The notes under the pieces were generated by a model that worked only from the letters and a program-made list of their open reading frames with translations, did no database searches and had not been told where the DNA came from. Both the position numbers and the translations under genes were made by a program. This document shows, piece by piece, positions 5,053 to 63,434 of a DNA stretch of 64,000 nt. Within the stretch, counting starts at the first letter, position 1, and each line of letters begins with the position of its first letter. This DNA is from Amoebophrya sp. A120 (lineage: Eukaryota > Protista > Dinoflagellata), in assembly GCA_905178155.1 (NCBI GenBank), contig CAJINV010000034.1:75350-139349 (forward strand), written 5' to 3'.

Positions 5053-5073
5053 AGGGGGATCATTGATCCCCCT
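5053..5073. other. Perfect 10-bp hairpin upstream of the 820-aa ORF
   Basis: AGGGGGATCA-T-TGATCCCCCT. Confidence 0.6.
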
Positions 5074-10005: not shown

Positions 10006-10216
10006 TACTACCCTGAAAATTCTTACAGTTGAAGCGATTCATTGTTCTATTTGCCATGTAAATCGCTACACTTTGACCACTTTTCATTACAAGAACCCGC
10101 CAGCTTCCCCATATAAGGCATTTTGATCATGCACCCCATGAGCACTACCTTGTACAGCTTTGCATATCTAGATCCTTTCAATATACAATTGCAATACAAT
10201 TAGAAAGGATCTGTAG

Positions 10217-12460
10217 TGGTTGTTATTGTGCTGGTTCTGTGCGATGTAGTAGTCGAGTCACCTGCTCCAGAACATGTCCACCGTCGAGCCGGCAAAGCGT
10301 TCCGAGGGGAATCCGTGATCGTTGGTCGCGGAGGTTGCGGGTTCTATACACGCCTGAAAACGCCCTTAATTAGCTATATAAATTACTACCTATTTAACCA
10401 TAGCTACTACTTTTAGGCATTAGAAATCAGGACTCTTTCTAGCTATAAAAAATCGCTAATAAAATTTTTGGGTATTTTGAGTTTGGGTAAGTTGACGCAT
10501 CCATATATCGGGATTATCAAATGCAAATATGTCTTCTGGGTCTGGAAGGATGCAAGGTTTGTCATGCTTGTCTGGCATGATGACTGAAAAGTCTGTGATG
10601 CGTCTCCAAGAAGAGACCCTTTTGCTTGTCATGCAAAGACGCAGTTTGTCATGCGGAAACCGCAACACTAAGCCCCGCAAATAATTCTCATGCTTGGCTG
10701 TGCATTACAGACCACTCACTATTCACAACTCAGCATTACAAGTTTCCAGACCCAGACATATTATTTGCGATGCATAGGGATTGCCCGCAACTGGATTTTC
10801 GAGCATTCTGTGCTGGAACGGGGCTGCAAAGTCTGGTCCTTTGACCCCACCATGGCCGTTTCGAACACACAACTCGGGTCGGACCCGGCCACCTACCAGC
10901 GATTACCGCAGATTTTGTCGAGTCAAACGAAGCGCCACCCGACCCGGCACTGGTTTTACTCCGTCGCCATCGGAACCACGATGGGGCAGGGCGGCGGGGG
11001 GCAGGGCGGCTGGGAGTCGACCAGTGTTTATAATCACCGTGGGGCGGGTTTTATCCTGTGCAAAAGTATCGTACTCGTATTGCAGTCATGCATTGCAAAT
11101 TTTTTTCTTAAGTTAAATCAGCATTACAAATTTTATTTCTTATGCTGAGGAAATTTGTAATGCATTTATATTACGAGTACGATACTTTTGCAATGCATAG
11201 GTTTCCGGTACAGCACAGTGACCCTGCGACACATGATCGAGCAGATTGCGAAGCTGCCGAAGGACCAGAATCTGCACGTACTGCGGATTATCAATTGCAA
11301 TAGCATCGTACTAGTGGTATATTGCTATACAAGTTAGCTCAGCACGACAAATGGAATTTGTCATGCTGATAATGCATGACTGCAATTACTACGAGTGTGA
11401 TACTTTTGCACACGATACGGATGGATGTGGAAGGCGCTGAAGTGCCGGTGCTGATGATATCCAATGCAAACATGTCAGTCTGTGTCTGGAAGATTGCAAG
11501 ACTTGTTATGCAGGTTTCCACGGCCCGTGGGGTGAGATCTGGGTCTGGCATGCAGGACTAGCATGACAGATTCTGTGAGATATCTATCTGATAGACGGGA
11601 ACAGGTGCACCAAAACAGGAATGATAGTATCATTCCTGTTTTGGTGCATGAGAAACTCCCTCTCCAATCGGTCAAATGTGCACACCAGCTTTGGGCAATC
11701 ATGCAACACAGATTTTGGCATGATTCAGATTTAGCATGACAAGTTGCAGTCTACATCCAGCCCCAGACATGTTTGCAATGCATAGATGAGTTGGCTCAAC
11801 GATAACGGAATTTTCAATATCCTGTGCAAAAGTATCGCACTCGTGGTAATCGCAAACATGCATTACAAATCTTTTATTTCATTTTCTTAAGGTAAATCAG
11901 CATTACAAATTTTCTTTCTCATGCTGAGGAAATTTGTAATGCATTTATAAGAGTGCGATACTTTTGCAATGCATATTCAATCGCATCGACCAGCTTTTGA
12001 TGGAGATTCACGTTTTCAAAAAAGGCCCGAACACGGACTTTCCCGCCATGCACAAGGCACTGGTGAGTGCTGTGGGGAAGTATATGGACCCCTTCTGGAT
12101 AAACAAAAACGGTCACTTATCCTGAGTAAAAACGTACCCACACCAGAGTTGTAATGCAGATTTGCAAAGACAGGAAGACTTGTAACGCGCATCCCCATGA
12201 GAGCCATTGCCAGTCGTGTTTTGGGATTTGTGATGCTGTGAACAGGATGAGCAGACGAATCTGTGATGCGGCTGCGCTTGCTAACCTGCACTACACTGCA
12301 TAGTGCAACTTGTCATGCGTGACTCACAAAACTCCTAGGCTTGTGTTGCAAAATCCCCATCCTGACTCTGGTGTGGGTGCGTTTTTACTCAGGATATCAT
12401 TCCCCCGCAGTCTATGAGGTCGGGTTCTTGAACCGCGACAGATTTAGGACGGGGAGGTAG
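10217..12460 (+). CDS. METTL24-like (Methyltransf_22/FkbM-related) methyltransferase, 5' end missing, 6 TIR introns
   Basis: Spliced motifs IGIARNWIFE, GCKVWSFDPTM, LRMDVEGAE, IDQLLMEIH, YEVGFLN; stop TAG 12458-12460; in-frame stop at 10201 and no ATG. Confidence 0.85.
10515..10776. mobile_element. Introner family B
   Basis: TIR TATCAAATGCAAATATGTC..TGGGTCTGGAA; DR GGGAT/GGGAT; frame restored. Confidence 0.9.
11052..11199. mobile_element. Introner family A
   Basis: TIR TAT....TGCAAAAGTATCGTACTCGTA; DR GGTTT/GGTTT. Confidence 0.9.
11289..11417. mobile_element. Introner family A
   Basis: DR CGGAT/CGGAT; splits LR|MDVEGAE. Confidence 0.9.
11458..11784. mobile_element. Introner family B
   Basis: DR GATGA/GATGA. 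Confidence 0.85.
11818..11975. mobile_element. Introner family A
   Basis: DR TTCAA/TTCAA. Confidence 0.9.
12118..12396. mobile_element. Introner family C
   Basis: TIR TATCCTGAGTAAAAACG; DR TCACT/TCATT. Confidence 0.9.
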
Positions 12461-13860
12461 AATGAGGTGTGGTGATCAAGAAAATTCTCGTGATGTGACG
12501 ACTGTTGTAGAAGTAGCAACTGCATCAAGACGAAAACCTCGACCTCCGCACTACTTTTATTGCCAACGTTGAAGCAGTAGATGAATCTGCGGCAATCTGA
12601 TAGTCACAGCGGACCGATAAAACACATTGCGCTTGATGTTCCACCAATGATCATCATCCTCGTCCTCGTGTAGCAGGCGTATGAAGAATAGAAAATTTTG
12701 TGCCAACTGATCTGCTCGCATTCCTTCTTCGGCTGCAAGGGCAGTTTAAGTTTTGTTTAGCACGACACAGAAATGTGGCTGTGGAGTTCTTGTCGATGGA
12801 AGTTGATCTAATTGCTTCATAATCTCGGATCAGTTCCTTGTACATTACCGTTGCCACGATCTGCACTGCAAAAGTAGATAGCAGTCCCGGAAGACGACCG
12901 ATGCATGGTCCTCGCATGCAAAAACACTTCTAGATTTTTTGTTGAGGACATGATCCCTCCCACCTATAGAAGGTTGTACTATTGGCAATATTGAACGCAA
13001 ACGGTCCTATTTCTAGCCCCTATATCTTTCTTCGAAAAAAATAAGGGAGCTGCGAAAAGGGAAGGATGCGGATGGTTTTTTCTTCTGGAAGATCAAGATT
13101 TGACTCCCATCAAGTAGATGAGATCTCTGCGTTGTGTTTCACATATCCCTTTTTCGTAGTTTGATGTGCTTGGAGGTAAAAACAAATCGGCTATAATGCA
13201 TGCCTGTTTTTCTGCTCGCGCAAAAGTTAATAATAGAAGGCATCAAATCATTATCATGATTTGTTGTATGAGAACGAATTGTATGAGTACCCGTTGGGCA
13301 ATGTGATGGGTTTCTAGAGCACAAGTTTCACGAATAAAGAACTGCTGCAAAACAATTGCTATGTCATCAAAAACTCCAAATTTTAGGCGCCGAAAGGGTC
13401 TCGAGTCAAAATCAAAATGTCTACAAAAGAAAGCTAATTTTCTCAACATTTGCTTAAACTGACAACTTCATGCTATTCCAACGACAACTACGACACTGCG
13501 TCACTAAGTACGTTTTTGATATGATGTAAAGCGACAAAATATGTTTCTTTTTCTATTTCTAAACTCGACTTGTTGATATTTCAAAGCGACAACAAGATTT
13601 TTCAACAACGCGACAAAACACCGCGACCTCTGCGATCAACTACATCAGACTGGAAGGTTGCGGCATTTGCTGTTTAGCGACAAAGCAGGCAAAAAGTAGC
13701 TTGCTGGCACGAAACTGAAAGTGCGGTGGATTTACTTTGCTACTCGGCTAGCTGTAGCTGCAACGGAGAAGAACTCAGAGACCCACCATAATTCCGCTCC
13801 TCCTTCCAGTGGCCTCTGGGATACTAGATCATATTGGACCACGACTAACATCCAATCACC

Positions 13861-16800
13861 ATGCCCAAAAGAAAGAAAACGAACGCGAGCGCCGTACTGT
13901 TTTTTTTTTCCTTTCCGGTAGGAGGTAGAAGAATTCGAAACAGGCGGAGTTGTGCACAAAACTTTTAGAACATGATAGTTTAGAAATTGTTTTCCCAGAG
14001 CAGGCTCTTTCATCTCGCAACAAACGTATAGCACAACGATGATGGTTTTTGATTTTGTGCATGACAAAATTTGTACGGAAGGTTCCGAGCGCATTAGAGT
14101 TAGTCTGAGCAACACGGTACAATTACCAGGTTCGCGGCCAAGGAGACCACGTGAGGACGACAACAGACAAGGAAGGTCACGGGCAGAATCATATTACCAC
14201 AGAGCAAGACAGGACGATGAAACAACCACTGCTCCTGACGCACAACACAAGTAGACCGGCTTCTGCTGCTGTCAACAACATCTCCTCGCAAGAAAATGAA
14301 TTGCAGGATCGTCATGTTGATGGTGTTGAAGATTCAACATCTGGAACAACACCACAAGTGGTCTCTGCGTTCTCCACTTCTACTTCCGAACGAGATCATG
14401 CTGAGAAAGCGAAAAAATACTACACGGCCAGTCGTCAGTGGTCTGGCGGACCAACCACGTGCGCGAAAAAGGTGTGGTCCTGGTTAATATCAGCTGAGCA
14501 GAAGGAGTATGAGTTGCAAAAGTGTCTGGGTCTGGAAGAATGCAAGTTTGTGATGCTTGTCTGGCTCTGGCATGACTCGAGAATCTGCGTTGCATAGGCA
14601 CGAAAGAGCCCTCTTAACTGTCACGCGAAAAGGCAGTTTGCCATGCGGAATACGTAAGACATGGCAGCCACAAAATTTGTCATGCATAGCTGCGTATTGG
14701 GGCGCGTCTATCATTCACTTTTAGCATTACAAGTTTCCAGACCCAGACATTTTTGCATTTCATAAGGAGCCGCAGCTGCTGACCGACCAGAAGGAACGAA
14801 AAGATGATAGTACTATTGCTGGAAAAGAGGATAGTATTGCTGCAGGAGGACCTGGTGGACGAACGACCTCCACACGAGCACGAACAGGCGCTAGCTGCTA
14901 TCGAATGCAAATATGTCCTCTGGGTCTGGAAGATAGATTGCAAGACTTGTCATGCAGGTTTATTCCACGGCCCGTCCCTGTCGTGAGGTCTGGAATGCAA
15001 GATAACTAGCATGACAGATTCTGATGTAAGATATCTATCATGCCTGTCTTGCATGAGAAACTCCCACCTCTCAACTTGGTCAAAACCAAAAATCGGACAG
15101 ATTTTGGCAATCACGCACCACAGATTTGCATGACAAGTTGCAGTCTTCCCGACCACCACCAGGGATGTTTGCAATGCATACTCGCAAAAATGCTAGTACA
15201 ACAACTGGTGGAAATAAAACTACTTCTACAAGTGCGTATTTGTGTAGTTCTCCTGCGACGAAGATTAAACCTGATGTTGCAAACAAAAGCGAAAAAAACC
15301 GTCTAATTTTGAAGACTCCGGTTCTCCTCACCGGCACCGCTTCAACCCGCGAAACCGAGGATATCTCCCCAGGACTCGGCCCCGCTTCATCTGCTGGCGC
15401 CAGCAGTTCCTCTGCTTCTTTTCCCAGTGCGACGACGCGGCTGCGGCAACGGGGTGGTAAGGCGAAGGCGCGAAGAGGTAAAAAGGGCAAAAAAGGCAAC
15501 AGTCTGGCCTCCTTCGTGGAGCCGGCAGAGAAGCTGACCTGCGCGGACATCAACTGCGCTGGGGAGCAGGCCGAAAACACAAACCGGACACCCCGCAAGC
15601 TGTGCTTGGCGCTTGTTCTGCTTGGCGGTTTTTCTGTTGTGGGCTACGTCGCAGCGCAGCAGTTTCTGCTGCGAGGTACTGCTGAATTTAAAAAACGGGG
15701 GCGGGCGGCGGCGGCCGCTCGTGCTGCAGCTGCAGAGGCGAAGGAGAATACCGGGGGCAGCTGGTGGAGCTCCGTTGCGTCTTTTCTCTTCGGGGACGAC
15801 GCAGATGCGGCAGTTCGCTCTGCTCCGCAGGAAAAAGAGAGCGTGGGCGAAAAGGAAAGCCCCGTCGGGCGGACCCCTGCTGCGTCAGGGGGTGTTGACA
15901 AAGCTCCCGTCGCCGCGGATGCCCTGGAAAAAATGCACGACGCTAGCAACACCAACAGAAACAGTTTGTTGAACCAGGTGCAGCCGCAAGGCGAAGATGT
16001 CGGACAGCACGACTCTGATAAACAGCACAGAGGAACGGGGAATGCAGTGACTACAGCCAACATTTTGACTGATCAAAATACACCTACATTACCTGGCGAA
16101 CTACATCAAACCGATCCTGACCAGCACTCGTCCACTTCTGCGGTACAACTATCTGGTGAGAAGCACTACATGAGCCAACAACAAGAAGCGAAAACTGCAC
16201 CTCCTACAGCTGCTGTTTCGCACCTACAACAGCAGCCGTCTACATCAACTTTGGCGCAGGGCAAAAATCAGGGGGTGGATCAACATGCAGTACGAGCAGA
16301 CGACGTTGGTATGAAAGGAAATCAGCCTGGTGGAACTACAACTTCCAGCCACGGAGAACCAAATGTGGGAGGTGAAAATAAAGGGATCATGGCACCTCTT
16401 CAGACTACAAGCGTGATGAATCTCGGCCCGCAAGATGAACCGGCGGAACTACGAGACCCTGTACCGCAAACCACGAGCCCCACCGCAGAGAAGAATTATG
16501 CATTGCAAATGTACTACGTATCGCGCACACGCTACATGAAAAATTATTTTCTCGTGAAGAAGAATGAGAAAATAAAAATCGGAATTCCTCACCCTCATGC
16601 AGATTCCGGGACAAGCACAAGAGCATTAGAATGAATTTTGTATTTTTTGTAATGCACGAAAGCGATTACGATTTAGTACAACAAGCCCGAGTTGTGCGTT
16701 AGTACTTTTGCTTTGGAGAAGAATGGTGGTAAAGGTGGTGCTGCAACGAGGACGGGGCCGCAACAAGTTTCTTACGCTCCGATCTCTAGGGTAGGGACGA

Positions 16801-19800
16801 AGCGGAAAGAGGAGGAGAACGCCCGGGGGATTGACGAAAGAGACGGAAAGAACCGTGAGCTCCACGAGGAAGAAACTCTGACCAGGAAAACCCAGATGGT
16901 GACGCGAAGCGGCCGGAGTGGAGGTCCAGCGTACACCAATCAGCGCGTTCTATCGCCGGACCCAGAGAACAAGGATGCTCCTGCTCCTGCAGAAGAAGTG
17001 GTGGCGCGACCTTCCACGGGAAAGATGGGCAAGCACTTACCTGCTCCAGCACGCGGTCAAGGGCGGGACGAGGTGAGCAATGATCACGCAGATACTGCTG
17101 GCAAAAACAGGATGAGCACGACGAAAGTCGCCGATGAAAGGGCTACGTCCTCTGGGAACAAAATTACCTCCGTCGTGATCAACGAGGAAAATGTGGTGCA
17201 AGAAAATTATGACCAGGACAGCGATAATTTTCTCTCCGGTGGCCGCGAGGAACCCGTGATGTACGACCACAACGGCGCTTTGTTATTGGAGGAGCCGCAG
17301 AATGAGAAAAAACAAAAACAGGACAGACTTGCTGAGAGCAACAAAAAGCAGCAGACTCAACATCATCATGCAGCTTCGTCACAGTCTAAGTCTTCCGGTC
17401 CGGAAAATGAGGCCGCGACAACTGATGATGGAAATTTAGTCACACCACGACCAGCGTCTGACGACATCGCTGGAAGAACCCCTGCGTTAGACACAGGTGT
17501 CGACCACGAGGTACTAGCTGCAACAACCAATACTGGTGGCGTTTCTATTGAAGGAAACAGGCCGGAGCAGATTGACCGTGCTGATGCACTGCAGGTTGAC
17601 GAACATGCACATGGTCATGATGAGGACGCCAGTGGAACTACTACAAGTGGTACTGGTACAACGGGCAGCACCTCCACCGCTGTGGAAGTCGGACTCAGAC
17701 CACCTAGCAAGGAGAAACAAGGGCGAGAGGTAGCGGAGATAACTGGCTTACACGGGGGCGATGAGGAAAAATCAGGAGGACAAGGCGGGATTACTACAAA
17801 TGCTGAAGATGCATCTTCGAAAATGGCAAGGGCATCTGTTTATTCACCGCAAAAGTATCGTATTCGTACTCACTGATTGCAATGATCTCCTATGCCTATC
17901 GCATTCGCAGAAAATTCATCATTACACATTTCACTTTTTCTTTTCTCTCGGAAATAAAATTTGTATATGTAAATGTAACTAGTTGTACTGGTGGAACTAG
18001 AAATACTGTACTCTACGATACATTTGCAATGCACATTGTTGAGAAGCCTGGTCAGACAAGTGGGGCGAAAGACGTTCACGTGCAAAAGCCGCCGAGCAGC
18101 ACGAGTAGCAGCATCGACGCCGCTGCTGATCCAGGCCAACAATCTGCTGAGGAAGGAACTGCTGTTGCTACGACAGAAATGCTCCCTTCGCATACAGAAG
18201 AACAAGGAGACTCTCCTTCAGCCAGCACGCTATATAATGTGTTTGTCCTTTCGGCAAAGGCACCCATCGTCGACCCGCTCATGATGCCTTCGACATGGGA
18301 GTTGGATTATCACCATTTAGTCCAGGGAAACGAAGAAGAGCTATCCGTTGCAAATAATATGTGTGGGTCTGTACAGAAAATCGAAGTCCATTGAGCCTTT
18401 TGCTTATTTGCGGATGAACAGCACCCTATGCACAAGGAGGGGCCACGCCTGACAAGGAAGACTTTGAGGGACTACGTGCGTCTGCCGCAGAGCAGCGCAT
18501 ATACGATTACGAATAGCGTTTTTGCATGACAAATAAGACGCCCTGCCCTTAGCCGTCCAACATGACAAATCTTGCCACGTACAATCTTCTCTGGTGTGTT
18601 CACCGCTCGAGGACGATTATTACTGGTTGAAGAAGCACGCGTGTCATATTTGCATTTCCTTTCAGGTCCCAAATTTTGAAAAAGCTTGACTTTGATTGCA
18701 AGTGCAATCTTCTTGGCCCAGCCCCAGACATAATCTTCGCATTGGATAGGAACTGGAGACCCATACCACTAACGGTGTCGTCGACGCATATGACAGAGTA
18801 CCAGGTTACTTTACCGACCATCGTAACCCGGATACTCACCCGCTGCTTCAATTCGATATTCCAAACCCCCACGACGAAAATTACGGCCAGTTCCTTTTCA
18901 GCGAACAGAATCTCAAAAGCGCAACTGTGGCAGCGAAACAGCTGGAGTTTTCCTTCAACTTTCCTCAACAAGCAATACGACAACGCGCAAGCAAACCACC
19001 GTCCGCTTATGCTTTTTTGTTGTGCGAAATGGCTGACGCAGCTCCAAATCCCTCAAATTGCTTTCCGGAAAACCCGGATGCCGCCACAGCAAAGTCTTGC
19101 CGTGTGATCCTGACAAGCAAAACCGCTGACGGGAAATGCGCACCGCTGTTCCTCGTCCGAAAAGCCGGCACGGGGGGGCCACTGGTACTCCTTTCAACCG
19201 ATAAAGTCACGACCGAGCTCTACGAGAAACCAGGACCCGATGGCGTCGAGGGATTAATTCCACGCGTCCTAACAAAGCTCGTACGCAACATATTTGCGGA
19301 GACGTCCCTGCTTGCCCGGTCAGCAAAAGCGCTGAAAAATATAGGAGAAGATGCACTGTCGTCTTGGTTGCCCAACGCTCTGGGGGCCCTTCTTGGAACG
19401 CTTTCTGGTTCGACTGCGGCTTTTGGTGTCGGTTCTGTGACGCGGGCGATCGTAAGCGAGCTTGTCGTGCCGAAGGTAGTGCAGTCGAATTCGGATTTAG
19501 CATCTTTGGACAATCTCCTCGGACGTCGTTTGCGCATTGCTACGAAATGGGCAACGAATTCTGGCTGGGGTTCGGGGGCAAATTGGCCACACGGAAGATT
19601 CCTGAAAAGATTCATCGGAGGAAAAGTGCAGGAGTTGGTTCCATACTATCTGGACTACTACAAGATCGATGTTGCAGCGATGACGGGTTTGGCTGGCGTT
19701 TCCATCACGTTGATCGCGCCATATTTGTGGAGCGAAATGTTCAAACAAACCGCGAGTCAGATAACCCGCGATCTTCAGCTTCACGTCTACGACAGAATAG

Positions 19801-34645: not shown

Positions 34646-35225
34646 ATGATGAAAATGCAGATCGGAGACTGCTTCTGGTGCGGTACGGATTTTGATGAAA
34701 AAAGAAAAAGGCTATACCTATAGCGCTTGCACGACGCTGCAATTGATTTCGCGACGAGGACTATACTGAAGCTGAACTGTCGATTGTGCGGCGGGCTGGT
34801 TCTTGGAAGTTTGAGTTTTACAAAACTTACCATTTTTGAATTCGAACGATTACTATGGACGTTCGCCACGACTCAGGAAGCTCAGAGCTCTGCCTGCTGT
34901 TCTGTTGCTTCGCCATCACGAATGCACATGACAGCTGACGAGTTTGAAAAGGGTGTACAGGGGTTCAGGAAAACATCGTTTCTGGGCAGTCTACATACAA
35001 GCAAGAGAGAACAAACCAAAACATCGACCGTGCTGTCTGATACAAACATGACGACAGAGCGTCCCTGTGATTCCCATCCGACATCAGTATGCTGGGAACT
35101 CGTATAATTGTGTGTGCTGATGAACGTAAGGAAGCAGTGGCTGCAGACACTTTATCTTTGTTTAACTTTACAAACTGACCATCCCACCAAGAACACTGGC
35201 TGGAGGTGACAAGAACGACACCAAG

Positions 35226-37938: not shown

Positions 37939-38439
37939 GGAATGGAGGAGGAGGAGCTTTTTCATTTTATTTTTATAGAGCTATAGCTGCCTAGGGTCAA
38001 GAACATCACTCGTCTTCCTGCTCGGAGCCCTTGTATATTAGGTTGAACCCTCTCCATGTTTTTGCCACCTTCGCTTTTTGTTTTTGTGAGTAGTACACTC
38101 GAAAAAAATTTTGATTACTTGCGTGCAACAAGGGCTAGCTGGAAGCTGGTTGGTTCTGATGTCGTTTTTGTTTCACAGCTAACATGTCGCCGCGTGATCC
38201 GTTTCCATTGATATTGTGTTGTCGGCACACAATTTGCCATCGTCCAAACGACACGCAGTGCCGAGGGTGCGCATCAAAGAATGAAACTGCAGCGCGCCAG
38301 TTGGGTAGAGTTCTTGTCCTTGATCCGCAGCCGCAGCGCGCACTGGCCTGCATGCGCAGCGTGTTCACCTTCAATCTGACGAGATTCGGGCCCGCGGTCT
38401 TTGTGCCCTGTGCTCCTTGATGCCTGTCTATGAAGGGAG

Positions 38440-39800: not shown

Positions 39801-39939
39801 TGCTTAAAGGGTGTTCATTGGGTTGTGTAGATGACTGATGTGTTCTCGCGCCGGATCTTCGGACATGGATGGAAGAAGGAACAGATGGAGTATGTCTGCG
39901 CCCTGCCTGCGTTCGTTCGCACTGGATTCGTCGCAGTGA

Positions 39940-46271: not shown

Positions 46272-47233
46272 GAAAGTTGGTTGAATCAGAGTAAAAGTCA
46301 AATCTTCGCATTGACAGAGTGCAGTTTTGCGTTCAGTTTTCTACACCAATGTGACCAGGCTTGTAGATAGAGATCCGACCACGGCCAGTTGCCAATGGCA
46401 ATTATGGTACGGGACGCAAGTCAGGAACAAGATCCGCTAGAAGTGTTGTAGAACAGGTAGTTGAAGAAGCTCTGCGACGTTTATTTTCTCTGTGCAGTTA
46501 CTAGCGGCGGAGCCGGTTCGGCCATCGTGGATCTTTTTTTCCGTTTTTTCTAAAAAGCGAATAAAGCTTAAGGCTCTGACGTAGTTGCAACCGAGCTCGT
46601 CTATATATTGCGCCGTTAATACTTGACGATCTAGCTTTAGCCCAGTTTCCCGTCACCTCAGCATGAAGATGCGACGAAAGATCAAAGTATTGCTATTCTT
46701 CTATCGGACAAGACCACGACCGCAAGACCTAGATATACTTCAATAAGATTTTATTACGGACGAGCCGCCGCGGGCTTAGAAGGTTATATTCTTTTTGTCG
46801 AAGCTGGTGCGCTACTAGTATCTGCTCATACTGCAGTACAAGTACTGAAATTTCAAAAACTAATCACCCAGGTCAACACAGTTCTTGTTCTCTTGATTTA
46901 GCGATATTCTCCTGCGTTTATTCTTGCAGGCCATTTCTTTAGAGCTGTCTGTGAAAAAATCCAGGTCCGCTCCACCACACACAATACTTTTCGTCGTTTT
47001 ACCAAACAACCAAATAGGAATCCGCTGCATTGTTCTTTGTCGATACAGTTCGCACCACTAGAAAGATAACCCAACATAACAAGAACAATAAGCACAAGTC
47101 GTTTTTCAACCACCAGAAGTTGTGTAGGGCGAGAAAATCTAAATCTCAGCAGGGGACTACTACCTCTGTTCCGCAACCGACGCATCCCAAGCGAAGCGCC
47201 AGTACCACCTTCTCAGGACCAGGAACATCGACC

Positions 47234-53652
<6,419 letters not shown>

Positions 53653-56483: not shown

Positions 56484-59400
56484 ATGCCGCCCAAGGCAAC
56501 GAGCCTTCTAAGCAAGGCGAAAGCCACCTCCGCCGCAGCAGCTACTACACCCGCGAAAGCCAAAGCCGGCTCGACTCCAGCTGCGTCCGCTTCTGCGGGA
56601 AATAAAAACAGCTATGAATCCTGGTTCCCGCTCCAAGACGCGAAAGCGAAACTAGAAGCGGAAAAGCTTTTCGGAAAAGACTCTGCAGACGGGGCGCACG
56701 AAGCAGAACCAGGTGACTCACTCACCTTACATGACGTCTTCGAAAAAAGCTCGAAGCTCTTGACCGAGGAAAGCAGCACAGTGTTGAAAAACCTTTTCTC
56801 CGCGTATTTGGCTGTGGATGATTTTACAACTTCCGCGAAGAAGACTAGCGGAAGTAGCGGGGAGGATTTTTTACGACCCGTGGCGGAACAAATCCAACTG
56901 CGTCAAATCGCGGCCATAGATCCACTCGCCTTGAGCCTGTCGCAGTGTGCGAAACTGGAGGCGGTCATGTTTGGAGGAGGTCGTGGTGCTGATGAAGCCG
57001 TAGGAAGTGAGAATGCAGCAACCAAAGCCGTTCTTCTTGCGGAGAAAAAGTTCTCCGATTCGTTCGCCAGCCTTTTGAACCAAATAAAAGGCACAGCGAC
57101 CACTGCAGCGGGAGGTGCTGGAACAGCATCTAGTGCAACTACGGCGAAAGCCGCCCGGCCACCTGCGCTTGCGAAGGCGAAAGCGGGTAGCAGTGCAGCT
57201 GCATCAACATCGGGGAACAAGACCACAGGAGCAGCGGCAGCCGGTGGAGCGGCCTCCAATTCAACTACAATGTCCGCAGAACATCAAATCCTCCCCTTAC
57301 TTCTATCCCTGATTTACCAGGGTTTGGTCCTCCGAAAAACGGATTTCACAACCAACCTGCTACCCATGATCGCACCAAAATGCTCCACTTTCTCGGAGGT
57401 CTACGACTGTTTGGTCCAGGCGGAGCGGGGGGAGCAGCATGTGATTTGTTGTGTGAAGAACAGTAGCAGTTTGCTGCTGCAGCAACAGCTGAAACAGTTT
57501 GCAGCGTGCATTGTGAGCGCGACATCATCGTCCGGTGGACGAGGACAAGAGCAGAAGCAGAACACAACTTGTGTCATCGACGTGAACCAAGTCCTAGCGG
57601 ATTCCTTCTTGAATCGGACGCAAGCTACGCTCGAGGGACTCCTGTTGTCGGTAATCCAGCCTGTTTTGTCTGGTAATGGCAGCTCTGCAGGAGACAGCAC
57701 AACTGCGGCTCCAAACAACATGATTTTCGGCAGCAAGAAACTTTGCTTCCTCTGCGGCACGCTTGACGTGACGAGTGTTTTGGAATATTTCGGAGAAATT
57801 TTACGGCAGAAAGGGCTGTTGGGGATGTTGAACAAGGATTCGAACAAGACGCAACTCATCTTCTTCACGATGGCACCAGCTAGTACAGCTTCGACTACTA
57901 GTACGGACAGTAACGGCGATCCCTTCATCCCTGAGGATCAACTGGCGACGATTCATTTTGCCCCGGCGCATATTAACCTCTCACGACCAGGGCCATTTGA
58001 CGGCGCTAGCAACGACTCTTTCCACCTTGCCGCGCCAAGCTGCTTGTTTCGGGAACGGGAGCGGAAAAACAAACAGCAACTACAGGACGAAGGGATCCGC
58101 AGCGGTAGTGCAGTTGCCCCGAAAAAAGATGATGAGCTTGACAAAGACCTGCAAAATGACCTCACCCACGTTTTAAACCAGAGCGTCGCATTTGATTTCG
58201 CCGAAGATTTTACAAAGTACAGCATCACAGGAGATAGCCCGAATTCCACCTTCGCATCGTCCAAAACGAGCAACGGCCCCACCTGGCTCCCCGGGCCAAA
58301 TTTCGAGGACGAACGGGGAAACAAGCTGAAACCAACTTTGATCTCCGCGAAGATCGTGAAACACCCGGTACAGTGCCCACAGATCGCGAGTATCCTGTGC
58401 AAAAGTGTCGTGCAGGCGTGCATGAGAAGATTCTTTTCTGAACTATATTTTAGCATGACAAATTTAGTTATACAGTTTTGATAATGTTCATCCCGTTAAA
58501 ATTTCTGATGCGATAACTTCAACTGCTCGTTACGGTTACTATCATGATACTTTTGCATATGCATAGCAACGCCCTGTCTGCAACTCGTTGGTGGCGCGGC
58601 GAATTCGCATTGCACGGGGTTGTATGCACTGCAAAAGGATCGTACATTCCAAGTATAAACGCATTACAAATTTCCTCAGCATGAGAAATGAAATCTGTAA
58701 TGCGGTTTTCCCTTGAGAACAAGATTTGTATAAATGAATGACTGCAATTACTAGTACGTTTACGAGTGCGATAGTTTTGCAGTTCATAGGTTGTATCATT
58801 GCTTTTTCGACGGCGAAAACATTCGAGGCGGTGGACCACACGCAAGTGAAACTACAAGCTCAACAACAACCCAAACAAGTGACAGTGCTTCTGCTCTCCT
58901 CATCCGTCCCAATACGATCGAATTTACGTTCACGATGCAAGGCAAAATCGAGTTCCAAAATGCCTGCGTCGTTTTCACGGAGAAGAAAATCGAAAACCGA
59001 ATCCTTCCTGACGCGAGGGTTGGCGTGCAGTTCACCGTGACACGCGGCGGGTTGATGATTTGCGAAGAAAACATGAACTCGGTGAACATCCAAAACGACG
59101 GGAAGCTATGAACTGCAAAGGTATCGTACTCGTATAAATGCATTACAAACAAGGTCAGGGCACGGGGGCGGGGGCCCCCGTGCAGCGACCTTCCCGCCCT
59201 TTGCAGGACGGGGCGCACGTCGTAGGACGGGGCGCCCTTTGCACGGACGTGGACAGCACACCAGAAATTTCAAAACTTTGCGCTATACTGAAAGCAAGGG
59301 CCCGGCCGCAGAGTCCCCACGCTGACCTAGGGCCTTGGCGCCTGGGCCGTACGGCTCCCGGGAGGCATCGCGCGCGTCCATCCAGCTGGCCCCTAGGTCA

Positions 59401-62400
59401 TGACGCGGGGACAGAGTCCCCGCGCTGACCTAGGGCTTTCGCCCCGGGGCCGTGTTCGGGAAGCGCTTCCTTGCAGCTGGCCCCTAGGTCATGGCGCGGG
59501 GACAGAGTCCCCGCGCTGACCTAGGGCTTTTGCCCCGAGGCCGTGTTCGGGAAGCGCTTCCTTGCAGCTGGCCCGTTCCCGCGCTGACCTAGGACTTTTG
59601 CCCCGGGGCCGTGTTCGGGAAGCGCTTCCCTGCAGCTGGCCCCTAGGCCATGGCGCGGGGACAGAGTCCCCGCGCTGACCTAGGGCTTTTGCCCCTGGGC
59701 CGCAGGCACGCTGCCCGGGAAGCGCTCAAAGCCCGTCCCTAGGTCATGGCGCGGGGACAGAGCGGCCTCGCTGACCTAGGGCTTTTGCCCTTGGGCCGTG
59801 CGGTGTCCGGGCAGGCACGCAGGGCCCGTGACTAGGTAGCCCCTCCGTCATGGGGCGACGCTCGTTGGGACAGGGCCCCCCCGTTGATCTAGGGCTTTGG
59901 CGCCCGGGCCATGGGGATTTCCCTCCGGGACGGATGCAGGCACCGAGAGCTCGCCCCCGGTCATGGCGCGGGCGGACACGGGGTCCTCGCGTTGGCCTTG
60001 GGCACTTGCCCGGCCGGCCGCGGGCCTTGCCTGCGGTGCCCGGGAAGCGCTCCCTCCCAAATGTTTTGACATGGCGCCACCTTGGAGGCCCATGCCCAGA
60101 CGGGGGCGGGGCCGCCTACGGGGGTTCGGGACTTCCGCCTCCTGGAATGTCTGCGCGCCCGCCGCTCTCTGTTCCTGCGTGTTTGCGCCCAGCGGGCCCA
60201 CTCACTGTTGATGTGCTTGGTCTGGAATAAAAGCGGACGCGCCCGGCGTGCCTGCTTCCTTGGTCTACTGGCCTGGGTGGTGGCGCGTGTGCATAGAATA
60301 AAAGCAGCCCCCTGCGGCCTTTGCAGAAAAATGCAGGGCCCATAGATACGCGCCCGCCTTGTTTCTCAGCCGGGCGCGCGCTTGTTTTGTTGTCGCAGAA
60401 AAGGCCCCCGCGTGGGGCTTGCTAGGTCGGCGCGCCCGGAATGTCTATGCACGGGGCACACCAGCAGCAAACACACCCCAAGGCACGGCGGCGAGTGGCT
60501 TCGCGGGATCCACCCCCTCGAGTGGGCCTGCTTATCTGTGTTGACACTCACTGGCCATGCCGATCGGAGTCGCGTCCGAAAGCGCCCGGGGTCGGTTCGG
60601 GGGTGTGTCCAGCTTTTTCCCCGAGGTGTGTTCGGGAGTGTGCCCCGGGGTGTGCCTGGCGGGTGTCGGGTGTGTGTGTGTGTGTCTGGGGTGTGTGTCG
60701 GGGGTGTGGGCCGGGGGTGTGCCTGGGGTGTGTCGGGGGTGTGTCTGGGGTGTGTCTGGGGTGTGTCCGGGGTGTGTTCGGGGTGTGGCCTGCAAATTGC
60801 AAATCACGATGCTACGCAGCCACTTTGCATGCCCCAGAACACACCCCAAAGCTTCAGCAGTTCTTGTCGGGGGGGTGTGTCGGGGATGTGTCTGGGGTGT
60901 GTCGGGGGTGTGTCTGGGGTATGTTTTGGGGTGTGGCCTGCAAATTACGAATCCCGATGCTAGGCAGCCACTTTGCATACCCCAGAACATACCCCAAAGC
61001 TTCAAAAGTTCTGGTTTGCTGCAGTCTAAATAGTAATTTCCTCAGCGTCAGAAATAAAGTTTGTAGTGCGGATTTGCATTCAGAAAAAGATTTGTAATGC
61101 AGAGGTTGCATTTATACGAATACGATACTTTTGCACAGGATAGAAGCTGAAGAATGACAAGTGGTGCAGCGTGAAGCTGCAGATTGACTGGAAATATGCT
61201 CATTTTTAAAACCGTCCCTACCGCCAGCACGCCCAGAGTTGTCATGCGGATTTGAATTTGATGCGAAAAGAATCGCAGAAACGTTTGCACTAAAATGCGC
61301 ATCCCCATGAGGGGCATCTTCAGTCGTGTTTTGGACTTTGTAATGCTGTCACCAGGATAAGGAGTTGGCTTTGTCAAATGCGTGACTTGCAAAACTGCTG
61401 GATTTGTGTTGCTAAGTTCCCAACTTGATTCTGGGATGGGGCGACGTCTTTCCTCAGCATAGGAAAGAGAAAAAGATCATTCCGCAAGTGGATTTATCAA
61501 ATGGAAATATGTCTGGGTCTGGATCTACGTTGCAAGACTTGTCATGCAAGTTTCCCATGCCCCGTGAGGTCTGGAATGCGAGACCCAGCATGACAGATTC
61601 TTTTAGGTCTCTATCGTGCCTTTCCTGCATGAGAAACTGCCTCTCAGCTTGGTGAAAAGCGGACAGCTTCTGGTACTCACGCAACACAGAAGATTTTTGC
61701 ATCTTTCTGATTTAGCATGACAAGTTGCAGTGTTTCAGATGCAGACACATTTGCCTTTGATAGGATTCCCAAATGAAGGGGAAGTATGCTCCGGCCAAGC
61801 AGAGCGTGGCGTTTCGGGACAAGCGGTGCAATATCAACTGCAGGATTCTTCGTTCTGGTCTGCAATAAAGGTGATTGTTCCTGTTCGATTCGTGTTTCTG
61901 AGTTAAGCATGACAATATTTTTCTCCCGCTTGTTGTTAACCCTGAATCAGCTGCAACACAACCCATTGAAGCTGTGGTCCACCTCTGCCTCATGCACATG
62001 CTCATTTTCACTGGAGACTGGCATCACAAATTAAGACTAAGACAAGAGGGATATTTACTTGCAATGCATATGTAACGGCTTCGGGTACGTCTACCTGTAC
62101 AACTGCGAGTCCTTGGCCACGTTCTGGTATCCAGAGCCGCGAAAGTATCGTGCAGCTGCAGTCTTTGTCCTGCATAACAGACCAAGGCTTCTGTACTAAA
62201 ATCAGCATGACAAAGTCAAAGTTTGACTATTTTAAAATCAGTCGATTTGTTCAGTAGAAAATTTGTCATGCGACAATTTAATACAGCTACTAGCGTGATA
62301 TTTTTCTACATGCATACCGGGCTGCAGAAATTGCGGGTTGCAAACGAATATGGATTGCAAAAGTGTCTGGGTCTGGAAGATGATTGCAACTTGTAATGCT

Positions 62401-63434
62401 GGATTTGGATTCTACAATAAATCTGTATTGCATGAACGGCAAGAGAGGTCCAGTTTTTGTCATGGCGAAAGCGCATTTCTGATGCGGTATAGGCATGAGG
62501 AAGCCCCCATAAATAAATGTGTCATGCTAGGGCATGCATCACAGACATCAGGAGTCATGCAAAATGTGCATGACAAACCTTGCATCCTTCCAGACCCAGA
62601 CACTTTTGCATTTGATAACAAAGTGGTCGCAACGGATGGAGACGCGGACAACAAGTATGCAGTGGAAAAGTGTCGCACTACTAGTACAAGTAGGCGCATT
62701 GCAAATTTTCTCAGCATGACAAATGGAACCTGTCATGCTGAATTCTCCTTGAGGAAATCAATTTGTCATGCACTACTGCAATTACCATACTACGAGTACG
62801 TCGATGCTTTTGCAGAGGATAACAAAACTTTGCTGGCCATGGAGGGATTGGATGCGAGAAAGTATCGCAAGAAAAAACTGTTTCATTGTAAACTTGTAAT
62901 GCAGAAAATGCATCGGAGAAGTGTTTCTCTTGCTACACATGCAAGACAAGGATTTTTAGCTATGTTTTCCCTTAGGAGTCTCGCATGGCAGATTTTCTCT
63001 GTAATGTAGAACAAACTTGTGATGCAAAAATTGGAAAATCGTTACAGTGAAACAGTTTTTTCGTACGATAGAAAGCAAATGGAGGATAACCTGCGGAAAA
63101 AAGAAGCGGAAAAGGCCGTGGAGAATATGGAAAAGGGAAATAAGTTGTGACGACAAAACACTTACAGTATCCTTCATCCTCGTGACGAACTTTTCGTCTA
63201 TTAAGGAAAAGCTTTTCTCCTGCGGAATGTTAATGTAAATGTTGCGCATGAGGATCAGCAGAAAGAGATCTGTAGTTTTTTCGCGGCGGAGGAACAAGAT
63301 GGTTGTCACTATCTATTTTCGTCTTCTGCATAGCACACGATATGAAGGTGGGGATGAAGATGGGTGGATTTGCGAAAACAACTGGACATGGGATGAATCT
63401 GGCGGAAGAACAGAACGCGAATATCAAATTTTGA
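56484..63434 (+). CDS. Hypothetical protein with Ala/Lys-rich N-terminus and probable beta-rich C-terminal domain, 11 TIR introns
   Basis: Frame traced from ATG 56484 through micro-exons (…QNDGK|LKNDKWCSVKLQIDWK|EKKIIPQVD|SQMKG…) to …EEQNANIKF* (TGA 63432-63434). Confidence 0.75.
58391..58565. mobile_element. Introner family A
   Basis: DR GCGAG/GCAAC. Confidence 0.8.
58623..58788. mobile_element. Introner family A (reverse orientation type)
   Basis: DR GGTTG/GGTTG. Confidence 0.9.
59310..59800. repeat. ~90-bp tandem array of GC-rich hairpins
   Basis: CCCTAGGTCA-TG-GCGCGGGGAC-AGA-GTCCCCGCGC-TGACCTAGGG at 59391-59435, 59482-59526, 59641-59685, degenerate 59737-59781, plus half copies. Confidence 0.9.
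60598..61012. repeat. (GGGGTGTGTCN)n minisatellite inside a ~150-bp duplication
   Basis: 11-mer G/T repeats 60598-60785 and 60870-60935; GGGTGTGGCCTGCAAATT…CCCCAAAGCTTCA block at ~60781 and ~60930. Confidence 0.85.
61195..61461. mobile_element. Introner family C
   Basis: Internal sequence matches 12118 and 43455 copies; DR GGAAA/GGAAA. Confidence 0.85.
61495..61762. mobile_element. Introner family B (reverse orientation type)
   Basis: DR GGATT/GGATT. Confidence 0.9.
61832..62070. mobile_element. Introner, diverged family B-like
   Basis: DR TGCAA/TGTAA; frame restored. Confidence 0.75.
62127..62316. mobile_element. Introner family A (diverged)
   Basis: DR TCTGG/CCGGG; frame restored. Confidence 0.7.
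62349..62617. mobile_element. Introner family B
   Basis: DR ACGAA/ACAAA. Confidence 0.9.
62656..62821. mobile_element. Introner family A
   Basis: DR ACAAG/ACAAA. Confidence 0.85.
62863..63070. mobile_element. Introner family F-like
   Basis: TIR TATCG…GAAAAAACTGTTTCA.TGTAA; DR GAAAG/GAAAG. Confidence 0.85.
63126..63332. mobile_element. Introner, highly diverged (family J)
   Basis: TATGGAAAAG..AAATAAG.TGTGAC.AC / GTTGTCAC…TATTTTCGTCTTCTGCATA; DR GAGAA/GCACA; frame restored. Confidence 0.6.

Follow-up and report, generated by a model that had tools for sequence, protein, structure and literature searches.

Introner elements in both orientations within plus-strand genes of Amoebophrya sp. A120 and their likely removal from pre-mRNA

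The window analyzed here, a stretch of 64,000 nucleotides from contig CAJINV010000034.1 of Amoebophrya sp. A120, carries copies of the same repeated element families in both orientations inside + strand genes, which raises the question of how such elements are recognized, and whether they are removed at the RNA or at the DNA level. The elements belong to the A120 motif/introner-element system of Farhat et al. (2021, PMC7789003), and the phenomenon is not new. According to that study, repeated introns number 29,850 and occupy 17% of the A120 assembly; the inverted repeats begin with TAT, seven variable letters and at least three A, and are accompanied by direct repeats of 3-5 nt, hairpins and non-canonical borders, the same organization being found in 15% of canonical introns. 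It also reports that spliceosomal proteins are nearly all present and that U1 snRNA was not found; its authors lean toward a mechanism other than the usual one, and the hairpin idea was already put forward there for A120 introner elements.

Element anatomy and orientation

Sixty hairpin elements of 109-2036 nt were mapped (Table 1), constituting 28% of the 10.5-63.4 kb interval; the copies listed in a first-pass annotation of this DNA are real, although many others had been missed. TAT opens 58 of the 60 elements and ATA closes 59, and base counts over the 60 are the same at the 5' end and at the mirrored 3' end, with one consensus, TAT[C/G][C/A]A.TGCAAAA, common to both. The 5-nt flank repeats are exact in 35 elements, with one, two and three mismatches in 17, 6 and 2, respectively; exact 5-nt repeats were found in 0/60 when the flanks were displaced by 10 nt, and exact repeats of other lengths in 0/60 (3, 4, 7 and 8 nt) or 1/60 (6 nt). 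Hairpin z values were -8.66 (44986), -6.46 (49700) and -8.06 (50765), and in these three folded copies, whether + or -, the stem begins at the first U of UAU. The elements are short, transposon-like and non-autonomous, and have mirror-image ends and duplicated 5-bp flanks; their copy number is reflected in a DNA-like run, where depth reaches 163,030 in element bins versus ~45 over unique DNA.

As had been proposed, families A and B both occur in the two orientations inside + strand genes, with 8 + and 10 - copies of family A, and 9 + and 7 - copies of family B. These calls rely on a weakly asymmetric interior, and because the elements are ~60-70% self-complementary over their whole length, an orientation could be assigned to all but 7 of the 41 family A/B copies. 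Motif A (28 nt) gave 11 matches at up to 3 mismatches (7 +, 4 -; 0.00 expected from shuffles), and motif B gave 13 (0.11 expected). Motif A matches lie on the previously assigned strand in the + copies at 11052, 11818, 30263, 33728 and 44986, and in the - copies at 49700 and 58623; likewise, + matches of motif B at 33145, 47726 and 62418 and - matches at 11699 and 50944 agree with the assignments of the copies at 33080, 47652 and 62349, and at 11458 and 50765. Two other family A copies assigned as reverse, 48550 and 59107, hold no motif A match at up to 3 mismatches, yet the former is reverse by whole-element alignment, and the right part of the latter is set as reverse by the inverted pair 31100-31208 / 61035-61143 (77% complementary).

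The + strand location of the host genes was borne out in the genes examined by RNA-like contigs, open + frames across joints and three public proteins (P0001, P0002 and P0003, each an "unnamed protein product [Amoebophrya sp. A120]"), which match window exons at 99, 100 and 98%, respectively.

Table 1. Host genes and hairpin elements of the window. Strand denotes gene strand or element orientation; k, bounds on upstream repeat letters kept in mRNA; record, RNA-like record skipping the element; FP, copy listed in the first-pass annotation.
Feature	Position	Strand	Flank repeats	k	Missing from	Remarks
Family B	10515..10776	+	GGGAT/GGGAT			TIR, 5-bp repeat; open + frame through joint
Family A	11052..11199	+	GGTTT/GGTTT			motif A, TIR, repeat, open + frame; FP
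A-like	11289..11417	unclear	CGGAT/CGGAT			TIR, repeat, open + frame
Family B	11458..11784	- (weak call)	GATGA/GATGA			motif B, TIR, repeat, open + frame; FP
Family A	11818..11975	+	TTCAA/TTCAA			motif A, TIR, repeat, open + frame; FP
Family D	12118..12396	.	TCACT/TCATT			open + frame through joint
Family B	14508..14764	+	AGGAG/AGGAG			TIR, repeat, open + frame
Single A-like copy	17841..18035	.	CTGTT/TTGTT			open + frame through joint
A-like	25044..25214	unclear	CAGCT/CCGCT			open + frame through joint
Family A	27042..27204	-	TGCAA/TGCAA			TIR, repeat, open + frame
Family A	27248..27390	+	GCGAA/GCGAA			motif A, TIR, repeat, open + frame
Family B	27993..28254	+	TCCTT/TCCTT			motif B, TIR, repeat, open + frame
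Host gene of P0002	28310..34361	+				1094 aa, without Pfam family; 14 exons, 13 introns, all element+5
Family A	28354..28501	+	TTGAT/TTGAA	≤4	P0002	
Composite	28680..28990	.			P0002	one element plus partial second copy; 16-nt direct repeat 28860-28875 / 28980-28995
Family C	29054..29299	.	CAGCA/CAGCA		P0002	
Single copy	29378..29575	.	ATCTT/TTCTC	≥1	P0002	
Family C	29877..30085	.	GGAGC/GGAGC		P0002	
Family A	30263..30411	+	AAAAG/AAAAC	≤4	P0002	FP
Family B	30541..30799	-	AAATG/AAATG		P0002	
Family A	31101..31250	+	TGAAC/GGAAC	≥1	P0002	RNA-like piece starts 31252
Family A	32628..32777	-	GCAGC/GCAGC		P0002, record 9	
Family C	32812..33022	.	AGAAG/AAAAG		P0002, record 9	
Family B	33080..33341	+	CCTCA/CCTCA		P0002, record 9	FP
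Family A	33728..33873	+	GCCGT/GCCGT		P0002	RNA-like piece ends 33722; FP
Family B	33989..34254	+	GCGGT/GCGGA		P0002	
Family B	34380..34631	+				19 nt past last P0002 codon (34361)
Host gene of P0001	35226..37935	+				696 aa, MFS_1 transporter; 3 introns, all element+5
Family A	35300..35469	-	GTCAC/GCCAC	≥2	P0001	starts TAC; RNA-like piece starts 35472; kept in DNA-like contig
Family A	36884..37045	-	CTTCT/CTTCT		P0001, record 10	kept in DNA-like contig
B-like	37422..37696	.	TGTTC/TGCTC	≥3	P0001, record 10	piece starts 37700
Single copy	41214..41450	.	ATGAA/ATTCA	≥4	record 11	starts TAC; piece ends 41212, pieces separated by 89 nt of record
Family B	41547..41801	-	CAGGA/CGGGA	≥2	record 11	piece starts 41804
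Family D	43455..43737	.	CCCGC/TCCGC	≥1	record 12	
Family A	43896..44049	-	GCTCA/CCTCA			required by record 12 arithmetic
Single copy	44287..44608	.	TGCCT/TGCCT		record 12	
Family B	44670..44927	+	CAAAA/CAAAA		record 12	
Family A	44986..45138	+	TGTGG/TGTGG		record 12	FP
DDX3/Ded1-like DEAD-box helicase gene	47000..53650	+				carries ≥13 elements and additional introns
Family B	47652..47922	+	GATTT/GATTT			motif B, TIR, repeat, open + frame; FP
Single copy	48243..48487	.	GCCGA/TCCGA			frame kept across joint
Family A	48550..48712	-	TTTGC/TTTGC			TIR, repeat; helicase frame kept; FP
Family B	48926..49223	-	TCAGC/TCAGC			exons collinear with DDX3X 2i4i_A, residues 49/50
Family A	49700..49851	-	CACCG/CACCG			exons collinear with helicase chains 8pnk_A 203/204, 2i4i_A 159/160, 5e7i_B 192/193, 1wrb_A 158/159; FP
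Single copy	49939..50158	.	CAGAA/CAGAA			DEAD-box motif region; open + frame through joint
Family C	50460..50671	.	CGGTC/CGGTC			TIR, repeat; frame kept
Family B	50765..51026	-	TGCGG/TGCGG			motif B, TIR, repeat, frame kept; FP
Single copy	51722..51830	.	CATCT/CATCT			109 nt; TIR, repeat; open + frame
A-like	51914..52055	unclear	GGAGC/GGAGC			TIR, repeat; open + frame
Family B	52136..52419	-	AAAGG/AAAGG			GT-AG-capable; TIR, repeat; open + frame
Family A	52829..52982	-	CAAGG/CAAGG			GT-AG-capable; TIR, repeat; open + frame
A-like	53297..53474	.	ATTTG/GTTTA			open + frame
Host gene of P0003	56484..63431	+				901 aa; 11 introns, all element+5
A-like	58391..58565	.	GCGAG/GCAAC	≤4	P0003	
Family A	58623..58788	-	GGTTG/GGTTG		P0003	FP
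2036-nt element	59107..61142	-	GAAGC/GAAGC		P0003 (2041 nt)	family-A ends enclose GC-rich tandem-repeat insert of ~1.9 kb; FP
Family D	61195..61461	.	GGAAA/GGAAA		P0003	
Family B	61495..61762	-	GGATT/GGATT		P0003	
Single copy	61832..62070	.	TGCAA/TGTAA		P0003	
A-like	62128..62316	.	TCTGG/CCGGG	≥3	P0003	
Family B	62349..62617	+	ACGAA/ACAAA	≥3	P0003	FP
Family A	62656..62821	-	ACAAG/ACAAA		P0003	
Family C	62863..63070	.	GAAAG/GAAAG		P0003	
Single copy	63126..63332	.	GAGAA/GCACA	≥4	P0003	

Absence of the elements from mRNA and protein

In the three public proteins, each of the 27 introns corresponds to an element plus 5 nt (element+5), one of them being 2041 nt long; exon chains were exact for P0002 and P0003, and P0001 sits entirely within the virtual product made by deleting element+5. 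The same deletion opens + frames across 9, 6, 5, 4, 3 and 3 joints. RNA-like contigs skip twelve elements, and the lengths add up exactly (81, 375, 89 and 492 nt separating the pieces), the evidence coming from contigs rather than reads of runs X3 and X4, whose RNA nature is the tool's guess; in record 12, the 1195 missing nt equal 288+159+327+263+158. Furthermore, the exons beside the reverse copies 49700 and 48926 are residue-for-residue collinear with solved DDX3X/Ded1 structures. Exact absence from mRNA or protein was found for 36 of the 60 elements, and the other 24 are backed by frame or repeat evidence, one of these (34380) lying outside the coding frame. Removal is supported for 5/8 A+, 7/10 A-, 4/9 B+ and 4/7 B- copies, and both orientations of the two families are missing from mRNA as element+5.

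One of the two mechanisms originally suggested, precise excision at the DNA level as in ciliate IES removal, is disfavored, since the elements stand at full depth in the DNA run and are missing from cDNA-like contigs of the same organism. The DNA-like contig 34504-37506 spans two elements without mismatch at a depth of 41.5, that of the neighboring unique contigs being 41.4-44.6. The cDNA-like runs show zero depth over the intergenic segment 38339-39005.

Cut register and proposed mechanism

Where the flank repeats have diverged, the mRNA holds letters 1-4 of the upstream copy and letter 5 of the downstream copy. This register (k=4), with cuts lying 1 nt ahead of TAT and 4 nt past ATA, fits the diverged repeats with a single exception, the composite's intron 28675-28990, for which k is 0 or 1. 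Three copies, two of them A+ and one unoriented, set the upper bound, and reverse-oriented copies give only k≥2. A single polar register at k=4 fits the observations, a fit rather than a proof, and represents a modest addition to the known system.

Symmetric recognition, as initially claimed, holds in part. Recognition does not depend on polar GT, branch and AG signals of one orientation, because copies of families A and B are absent from mRNA at element-defined borders whichever way they point, the end consensus is mirrored, and GT-AG is readable in only 2/60 elements; the cut, however, appears polar. Both GT-AG-capable copies (52136 and 52829) read GT-AG exactly at k=4. Over the 60 elements, neither a shared first letter nor shared last four letters were found at the k=4 intron ends, which would be hard for a conventional active site. 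The k=4 spacing matches that of a canonical AG^GTATG site (^, cut), mildly favoring a relaxed spliceosome. The two GT-AG-capable copies, the canonical introns with this repeat organization and the near-complete set of spliceosomal proteins lean the same way; the reported lack of U1 snRNA counts against it.

With these results, we consider it fairly likely that the published A120 introner elements are cut from pre-mRNA, in either orientation, by a relaxed U1-less spliceosome. Sites are predicted to be found from the terminal hairpin and the end motif instead of GT-AG; the 5' end of any copy would read N^UAUG/C and the 3' end a U-run plus AUA, the stem being the same, and orientation would be immaterial because a single consensus, taken as its reverse complement at one of them, describes both ends. 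With NNAGG as the 5-bp target, AG^GTATG...NNAG^G would result exactly at the fitted cut, and the register seems to descend from the layout of ordinary splice sites, GT and AG presumably no longer being required. In a preprint (bioRxiv 10.1101/2020.10.14.339549), class 12 introners of Polarella display a 5-nt NNAGG duplication with geometry as in A120. Regarding folding in RNA, a weak test of G-U pairing gave 62 G-T versus 47 A-C in the element arms, and the + strand RNA was the better folder in 38/59 elements (p 0.0075), a comparison confounded by element orientation.

Structure, families and orientation of the hairpin elements

The window carries 60 hairpin elements, designated here by their start positions, which begin with TAT in 58/60 cases and end with ATA in 59/60. 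Their lengths range from 109 to 327 nt, with a single element of 2036 nt, and together they sum to 14,600 nt, or 28% of the interval from 10.5 to 63.4 kb. A first search, which required inverted TA...TA ends bounded by the same 5 nt on either side, retrieved 35 candidates, including one nested false pair; the list of 60 was obtained by allowing one flank mismatch, inspecting degenerate copies and adding introns from protein models. The 5-nt flank repeat is exact in 35/60 elements and carries one mismatch in 17 (52/60 with at most one), two in 6 and three in 2, while flanks shifted by 10 nt gave 0/60 exact repeats as a control; other repeat lengths were never exact for 3, 4, 7 or 8 nt, and only once for 6 nt. 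The flank repeats of the 60 elements display no consensus. Conversely, the element ends follow the consensus TAT[C/G][C/A]A.TGCAAAA, with the same base counts at the 5' end and the mirrored 3' end, and with A at positions 11-13 in 50-57 of the 60 elements at both ends.

Self-complementarity extends over the whole length of the elements (60-70%), and in three predicted folds the elements form long hairpins, the stem starting from the first U of UAU in both orientations, with z-scores of -8.66 (family A, + orientation relative to the genes), -6.46 (family A, -) and -8.06 (family B, -). Pairwise identity grouped the elements in families A (24 copies, ~150 nt), B (17 copies, ~260 nt), C (5) and D (3), and left 11 single copies, among them the 2036-nt element 59107. 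As in MITEs, or non-autonomous DNA transposons with terminal inverted repeats (TIRs), the elements combine TIRs, a target duplication of fixed length, many copies and no coding capacity. No transposase was seen in the window, Rfam returned 0 families at gathering score over the same sequence, a 20-nt family-A repeat had 0 matches in viral contigs, and a Pfam search of 12 large exons recovered MFS_1 and Methyltransf_24 only.

The repeats noted in the first-pass annotation are real, with motif matches far above the shuffled expectation: the 28-nt family-A motif matched 11 times at ≤3 mismatches (7 on the + strand, 4 on the -) and never in shuffled sequence, and the family-B motif 13 times against 0.11 expected. 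Among the nine family-A places assigned to a strand in that annotation, seven carry the motif on the strand given; in the other two, the reverse-oriented 48550 and 59107, the motif has more than 3 mismatches, but whole-element alignment and an inverted pair with a + copy agree with the assignment. The motif matches likewise placed all five family-B copies on the strands originally proposed. Considering whole families, A has 8 copies one way, 10 the other way and 6 unclear, and B has 9, 7 and 1, respectively. Family-A orientation goes along with end octamers that differ slightly: one end reads TATCCTGT..., the other ...GCATA. Families C (29054, 29877, 32812, 50460 and 62863; 5/5) and D (12118, 43455 and 61195; 3/3) each display, unlike families A and B, one orientation relative to the + genes. 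Given the small numbers, this uniformity could be due to chance (a probability of about 1 in 64) or to a constraint on the orientation of these families.

Features of the window and their positions
Position	Feature	Details
28310-34361	Gene of public A120 protein P0002	
28675-28990	Composite intron	Full element, then partial second copy; 16-nt direct repeat 28860-28875 / 28980-28995
34380-34631	Family-B element	19 nt past last codon of P0002 gene, after stop codon
35226-37935	Gene of public A120 protein P0001	MFS_1 transporter
47000-53650	DDX3/Ded1-like DEAD-box helicase gene	Glycine-rich tails; at least 13 elements
near 48012-48160	Degenerate A-like copy	In helicase gene
within 48718-48925, 49229-49699, 50164-50459, 51451-51680, 52425-52828	Further introns	In helicase gene; without assigned hairpin element
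56484-63431	Gene of public A120 protein P0003	
59107-61142	Element with family-A ends	Interior 59150-61030, ~1.9 kb, GC-rich
59281-59913	Tandem units inside 59107-61142	~91-nt units
60618-60941	Tandem units inside 59107-61142	11-nt GT-rich units

The family-B element located past the coding end of the P0002 gene indicates that elements also lie outside coding sequence, either in the 3' UTR or in intergenic DNA. Two stretches of the window, 1-10500 and 15000-25000, contain uninterrupted + frames of 841, 525, 1089 and 657 codons. Unlike the element-dense genes to their right, these frames have elements rarely or not at all, and they matched no Pfam family. Another stretch, 38339-39672, has 63% GC and contains long open frames on either strand; its depth is normal in the DNA-like run and zero in the cDNA-like runs. 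It is probably intergenic, and no Pfam match was found for 38812-39804.

Absence of the elements from mRNA in either orientation

For three genes, the exons each matched one public protein (identity 99, 100 and 98%), annotated in every case as 'unnamed protein product [Amoebophrya sp. A120]'. When each element was deleted together with 5 nt of flank (element+5), + frames opened across 9, 6, 5, 4, 3 and 3 joints, and the inclusion of six more elements yielded one 948-codon frame across 11 joints. The length of element+5 is divisible by three in 25/60 cases only, and stops are found in all + frames in 45/60. After this deletion, P0001 (696 aa) is contained letter for letter in the virtual product, and in the exact exon chains of P0002 and P0003 all introns, 13 and 11 respectively, are of the element+5 kind. 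Together with the 3 introns of P0001, 27/27 introns of the three proteins correspond to element+5. These include the 2041-nt intron removed in the P0003 model, whose element consists of family-A ends around a foreign, GC-rich, tandem-repeat core of 1.9 kb.

Further support came from contigs of X3 and X4, two cDNA-like runs, in which the record letters between contig pieces (81, 375, 89 and 492) equal the element+5 prediction for 12 elements. In the helicase gene, the two exons around the reverse-oriented copy 49700 follow each other without a gap in chain 8pnk_A, the first closing at residue 203 (159 in 2i4i_A) and the second opening at 204 (160); across the joint of the reverse-oriented B copy 48926, the 2i4i_A numbering runs 49 | 50. 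Altogether, 36/60 elements have transcript- or protein-level support, comprising 5/8 family-A copies in + and 7/10 in - orientation, and 4/9 family-B copies in + and 4/7 in - orientation; for the remaining 24/60, the evidence consists of repeats and frames. Only 2/60 elements can be read as GT-AG introns in any register giving the same mRNA, namely 52136 (target AAAGG) and 52829 (target CAAGG), and no G[T/C/A]-AG reading was found for the other 58/60 in any such register. Thus, neither of the outcomes that would have spoken against the first-pass annotation, one orientation left unspliced or the use of cryptic GT-AG sites, was observed: copies of both orientations are absent from mRNA, regardless of orientation, interior and border letters.

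The elements are present in DNA. Depth in the DNA-like run X1 is 41-48 over unique sequence, whereas element bins reach as much as 163,030, or ~3,600 times the depth of unique DNA, and error-free X1 contigs hold whole elements, as illustrated by 34504-37506 at a depth of 41.5. Conversely, X3 and X4, which we infer to be RNA runs, give zero depth across the probably intergenic stretch 38339-39005 and contigs that skip the elements. Element sequence is nevertheless found within the cDNA-like runs, with bins up to 329.9 compared to ~10 over exons. Joint counts from the DNA run were dominated by repeat-to-repeat joints and were left out, as was X9, a set of raw RNA reads under the same species label but from another strain, which contributed 3 reads at ≥95%. 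These data point to removal of the elements from RNA.

The predicted folds of + and - strand RNA were compared in the 59 elements shorter than 400 nt: + strand RNA folded better in 38 of them (p 0.0075), with means of -74.4 and -71.9 kcal/mol, a difference that partly follows the intrinsic asymmetry and orientation of family A and hence is not clean evidence for selection on the transcript. In the terminal arms, G-U and A-C mismatches numbered 62 and 47, respectively, with no clear RNA-level signal.

Cut register and candidate removal machineries

Identical flank repeats leave the cut position undefined, and for this reason the border is called 'unknown' in the Fig. 3 legend of PMC7789003. Diverged flank repeats, however, can reveal the true cut register left open there, and the register was therefore read from such elements as k, the number of upstream flank-repeat letters kept in mRNA. 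The proteins, whose models are annotation, though RNA-seq driven, set k ≤ 4 at 28354, 30263 and 58391 (the upper bound thus depends on three copies, none clearly reverse-oriented). The lower bounds from proteins are 4 for 63126, 3 for 62128 and 62349, and 1 for 29378 and 31101. From the ends of contig pieces, the minimum k is 4 for 41214, 3 for 37422, 2 for 35300 and 41547, and 1 for 43455 as well as for 31101. A single value, k = 4, fits 13/13 informative elements; the intron would then consist of one letter, TAT...ATA and four letters. Where the flanks differ at positions 1-4, the upstream letters are those found in mRNA in 10/10 elements, whatever the orientation, and where they differ at position 5, it is the downstream letter in 3/3. 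The composite intron 28675-28990 constitutes the exception, with k = 0 or 1, and is the sole case in which downstream flank letters are kept.

Should k = 4 hold throughout, the cut is polar, with 1 nt on one side and 4 nt on the other, and is set by the transcript rather than by the element. The symmetric recognition put forward in the first-pass annotation thus stands in part: removal is blind to orientation, but the cut would be polar, as judged from the diverged flank repeats and provided that k = 4 is general. A symmetric nuclease with equal offsets on both sides was ruled out, the 5 nt removed along with each element being odd in number.

We lean towards a relaxed spliceosome as the removal machinery. 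With their mirror-image ends, copies of both orientations would present identical features at the 5' side (N|UAUG/C) and at the 3' side (U-run, AUA) and would fold into one common stem. This reading is favoured because k = 4 is the register in which an NNAGG target yields AG|GTATG...NNAG|G, and because both GT-AG-capable copies have targets of the NNAGG kind. It is favoured as well by three published systems, since class 12 introners of Polarella are described with the same geometry at canonical sites (Roy et al., bioRxiv 10.1101/2020.10.14.339549), 15% of the canonical A120 introns are reported to have the same repeat organisation (PMC7789003), and a modified major spliceosome is reported to handle non-GT-AG introns in tunicates (PMC13326754).

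A strong rival to the relaxed spliceosome, although we regard it as distinctly less probable than its negation, is a spliceosome-independent route of the kind proposed for the euglenid nonconventional introns (PMC11282704): a structure-specific endonuclease would make its cuts at set distances from the foot of the terminal hairpin, and the exons would be joined by an RNA ligase. The machinery might then, as a tentative proposal, measure from the stem base (1 nt at 5', 4 nt at 3') while ignoring cut-site letters and orientation. Such a route is consistent with cut sites lacking conserved letters, with a stem that begins exactly at the element ends in both orientations, and with the removal of the 2036-nt element despite its foreign interior, which implies that the ends alone matter. 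Moreover, U1 snRNA was not found by the authors of PMC7789003, who suggested a distinct mechanism, and euglenid introns are reported to have noncanonical borders, paired ends and flank repeats as well, and to be released as circles (PMC11282704). If true, this cut-and-ligate pathway would set the elements apart as a separate class among nuclear mRNA introns, one that has converged with the euglenid nonconventional introns. Two of the observations that favour the relaxed spliceosome argue against it, namely the coincidence of the deduced register with that of canonical splice sites (AG|GTATG for an NNAGG target) and the repeat organisation shared with canonical A120 introns. In bulge-helix-bulge (tRNA-endonuclease) introns, the two cut sites are marked by a 4-bp helix with a 3-nt bulge on each side; no such structure was found in the three predicted folds, where both deduced cut sites lie in flanks outside the continuous stem. 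A 1-nt/4-nt offset in unpaired flanks is also unlike a bulge-helix-bulge site, the flank repeats being identical and not complementary.

Much less probable is precise excision from DNA in the transcribing stage, with the 5-bp repeats as pointers and mRNA arising from element-free DNA. Ciliate internal eliminated sequences are transposon-derived, TA-bounded and precisely removed from the DNA of the somatic nucleus, leaving one repeat copy; similarly, the window elements have TA ends and lie between direct repeats, of which exactly one copy stays behind. In contrast to the ciliate sequences, they are retained at full depth in X1 and are missing from cDNA-like contigs and protein models. Compatible with stage-specific excision, a dinospore collection protocol is listed in the author contributions of PMC7789003, where the transcriptomes cover the whole infection cycle. 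Nevertheless, element-bearing X1 contigs show no mismatch at the depth of unique DNA (41.5 compared to 41.4-44.6), although contigs lose rare variants and rare excised molecules could escape. Element sequence occurs in the cDNA-like runs, as expected of transcribed elements, and the flank letters kept in mRNA (upstream in 10/10, downstream at position 5 in 3/3) follow a direction of transcription to which a two-fold symmetric excision would be blind. For the sampled stages, full X1 depth, elements in cDNA-like runs and consistent flank letters thus disfavour the DNA-level variant of the first-pass annotation.

Ordinary spliceosomal introns that rely on cryptic GT-AG (or GC/GA-AG) sites close to where the elements end, one orientation perhaps remaining unspliced, can practically be dismissed: copies 52136 and 52829 are readable in this manner, but the other 58/60 are not, all 27 introns of the three public proteins are element+5 with both orientations removed, and transcript or protein evidence refutes the reading for 36 copies.

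Relation to published introners and copies elsewhere

We know of no case of transposons turning into introns that is more extreme than Amoebophrya A120. The window elements are the A120 introner elements of PMC7789003, with which they share the genome, TAT + 7 nt + AAA inverted repeats, 5-bp direct repeats, hairpins, non-GT-AG borders and absence from RNA, with no essential difference from the description available in that source; each of the features by which A120 introners are recognized (genome, TAT ends, direct repeats, non-canonical borders and absence from RNA) was found in them. According to that study, A120 has more than 60% non-canonical introns and unidirectional gene blocks (Farhat et al. 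2021, BMC Biol 19:1, PMC7789003), and its repeated introns, with 3-5 nt direct repeats and hairpins, number 29,850 and occupy 17% of the assembly; about two thirds of the non-canonical introns are such repeats by the published count. Along with the missing U1 snRNA, the authors of PMC7789003 report no transposase in A120. A later study placed A120 introners among diverse transposons and described autonomous relatives for some families (Gozashti et al. 2025, PMC12130899).

The orientation-blind introner phenomenon is already known, the A120 introner system is published, and orientation-independent introners were reported for Aureococcus and Polarella (bioRxiv 10.1101/2020.10.14.339549). The orientation of elements relative to the gene is absent from the main text and one supplement file of PMC7789003, where 'orientation' refers to genes only; consequently, the explicit orientation count and the register deduced here are small additions rather than a new phenomenon. 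In literature from 2021 onward, we found no study on the removal mechanism of A120 introners. The window shows in compact form a removal blind to orientation and interior. A genome-wide reading of diverged repeats would separate a register defined by the transcript from one defined by the element and from a symmetric DNA cut.

Introner transposons were reportedly treated by Huff et al. 2016, alongside the work on Polarella glacialis, Symbiodinium and Aureococcus anophagefferens. In these three organisms, several introner classes create introns either way round (Roy et al., bioRxiv 10.1101/2020.10.14.339549); like the window elements, they are described as non-autonomous DNA transposons, and their target duplication supplies part of the splice site. 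Polarella class 12, with a 5-nt NNAGG duplication and a 5' site formed by the last duplication G and the first element letter, is reported in the same register as the window elements. However, introners of these organisms are characterized by G[T/C/A]-AG borders and a target preference, whereas the window elements lack a flank consensus and 58/60 are never canonical; the G[T/C/A]-AG sites typical of canonical introners, as in Micromonas, Aureococcus and Polarella, are available in 2/60 only.

Euglenid nonconventional introns, for which a MITE origin is considered likely and the removal mechanism is given as unknown (PMC11282704), resemble the window elements in their noncanonical borders, pairing terminal inverted repeats and duplication-like junction repeats, a likeness that does not imply membership. 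They belong to an unrelated lineage and differ in carrying CAG/CTG at +4..+6 / -8..-6, instead of TAT...ATA; they are reported to be excised as full-length circular RNA, once conventional introns have been removed. In fritillarid and Oikopleura tunicates, most introns are reported as non-GT-AG, handled by a modified major spliceosome and of likely MITE origin (PMC13326754); these introns keep a lineage-specific border pattern and, unlike in the window, hairpin ends and flank repeats are not defining there.

The exact 23-nt family-B end was also found at 144 or more places in one public contig set, JACKZZ01... (loci L001-L144). Gene strand was deduced for 17 of the 122 complete family-B elements recovered there, and the 13 of these that could be oriented, too few for a firm reading, comprised 10 in the same and 3 in the opposite orientation to the gene (p 0.09). 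None of the 122 shares a 60-mer with the window; 96 are bounded by exact 5-bp repeats, and often several lie on one contig.
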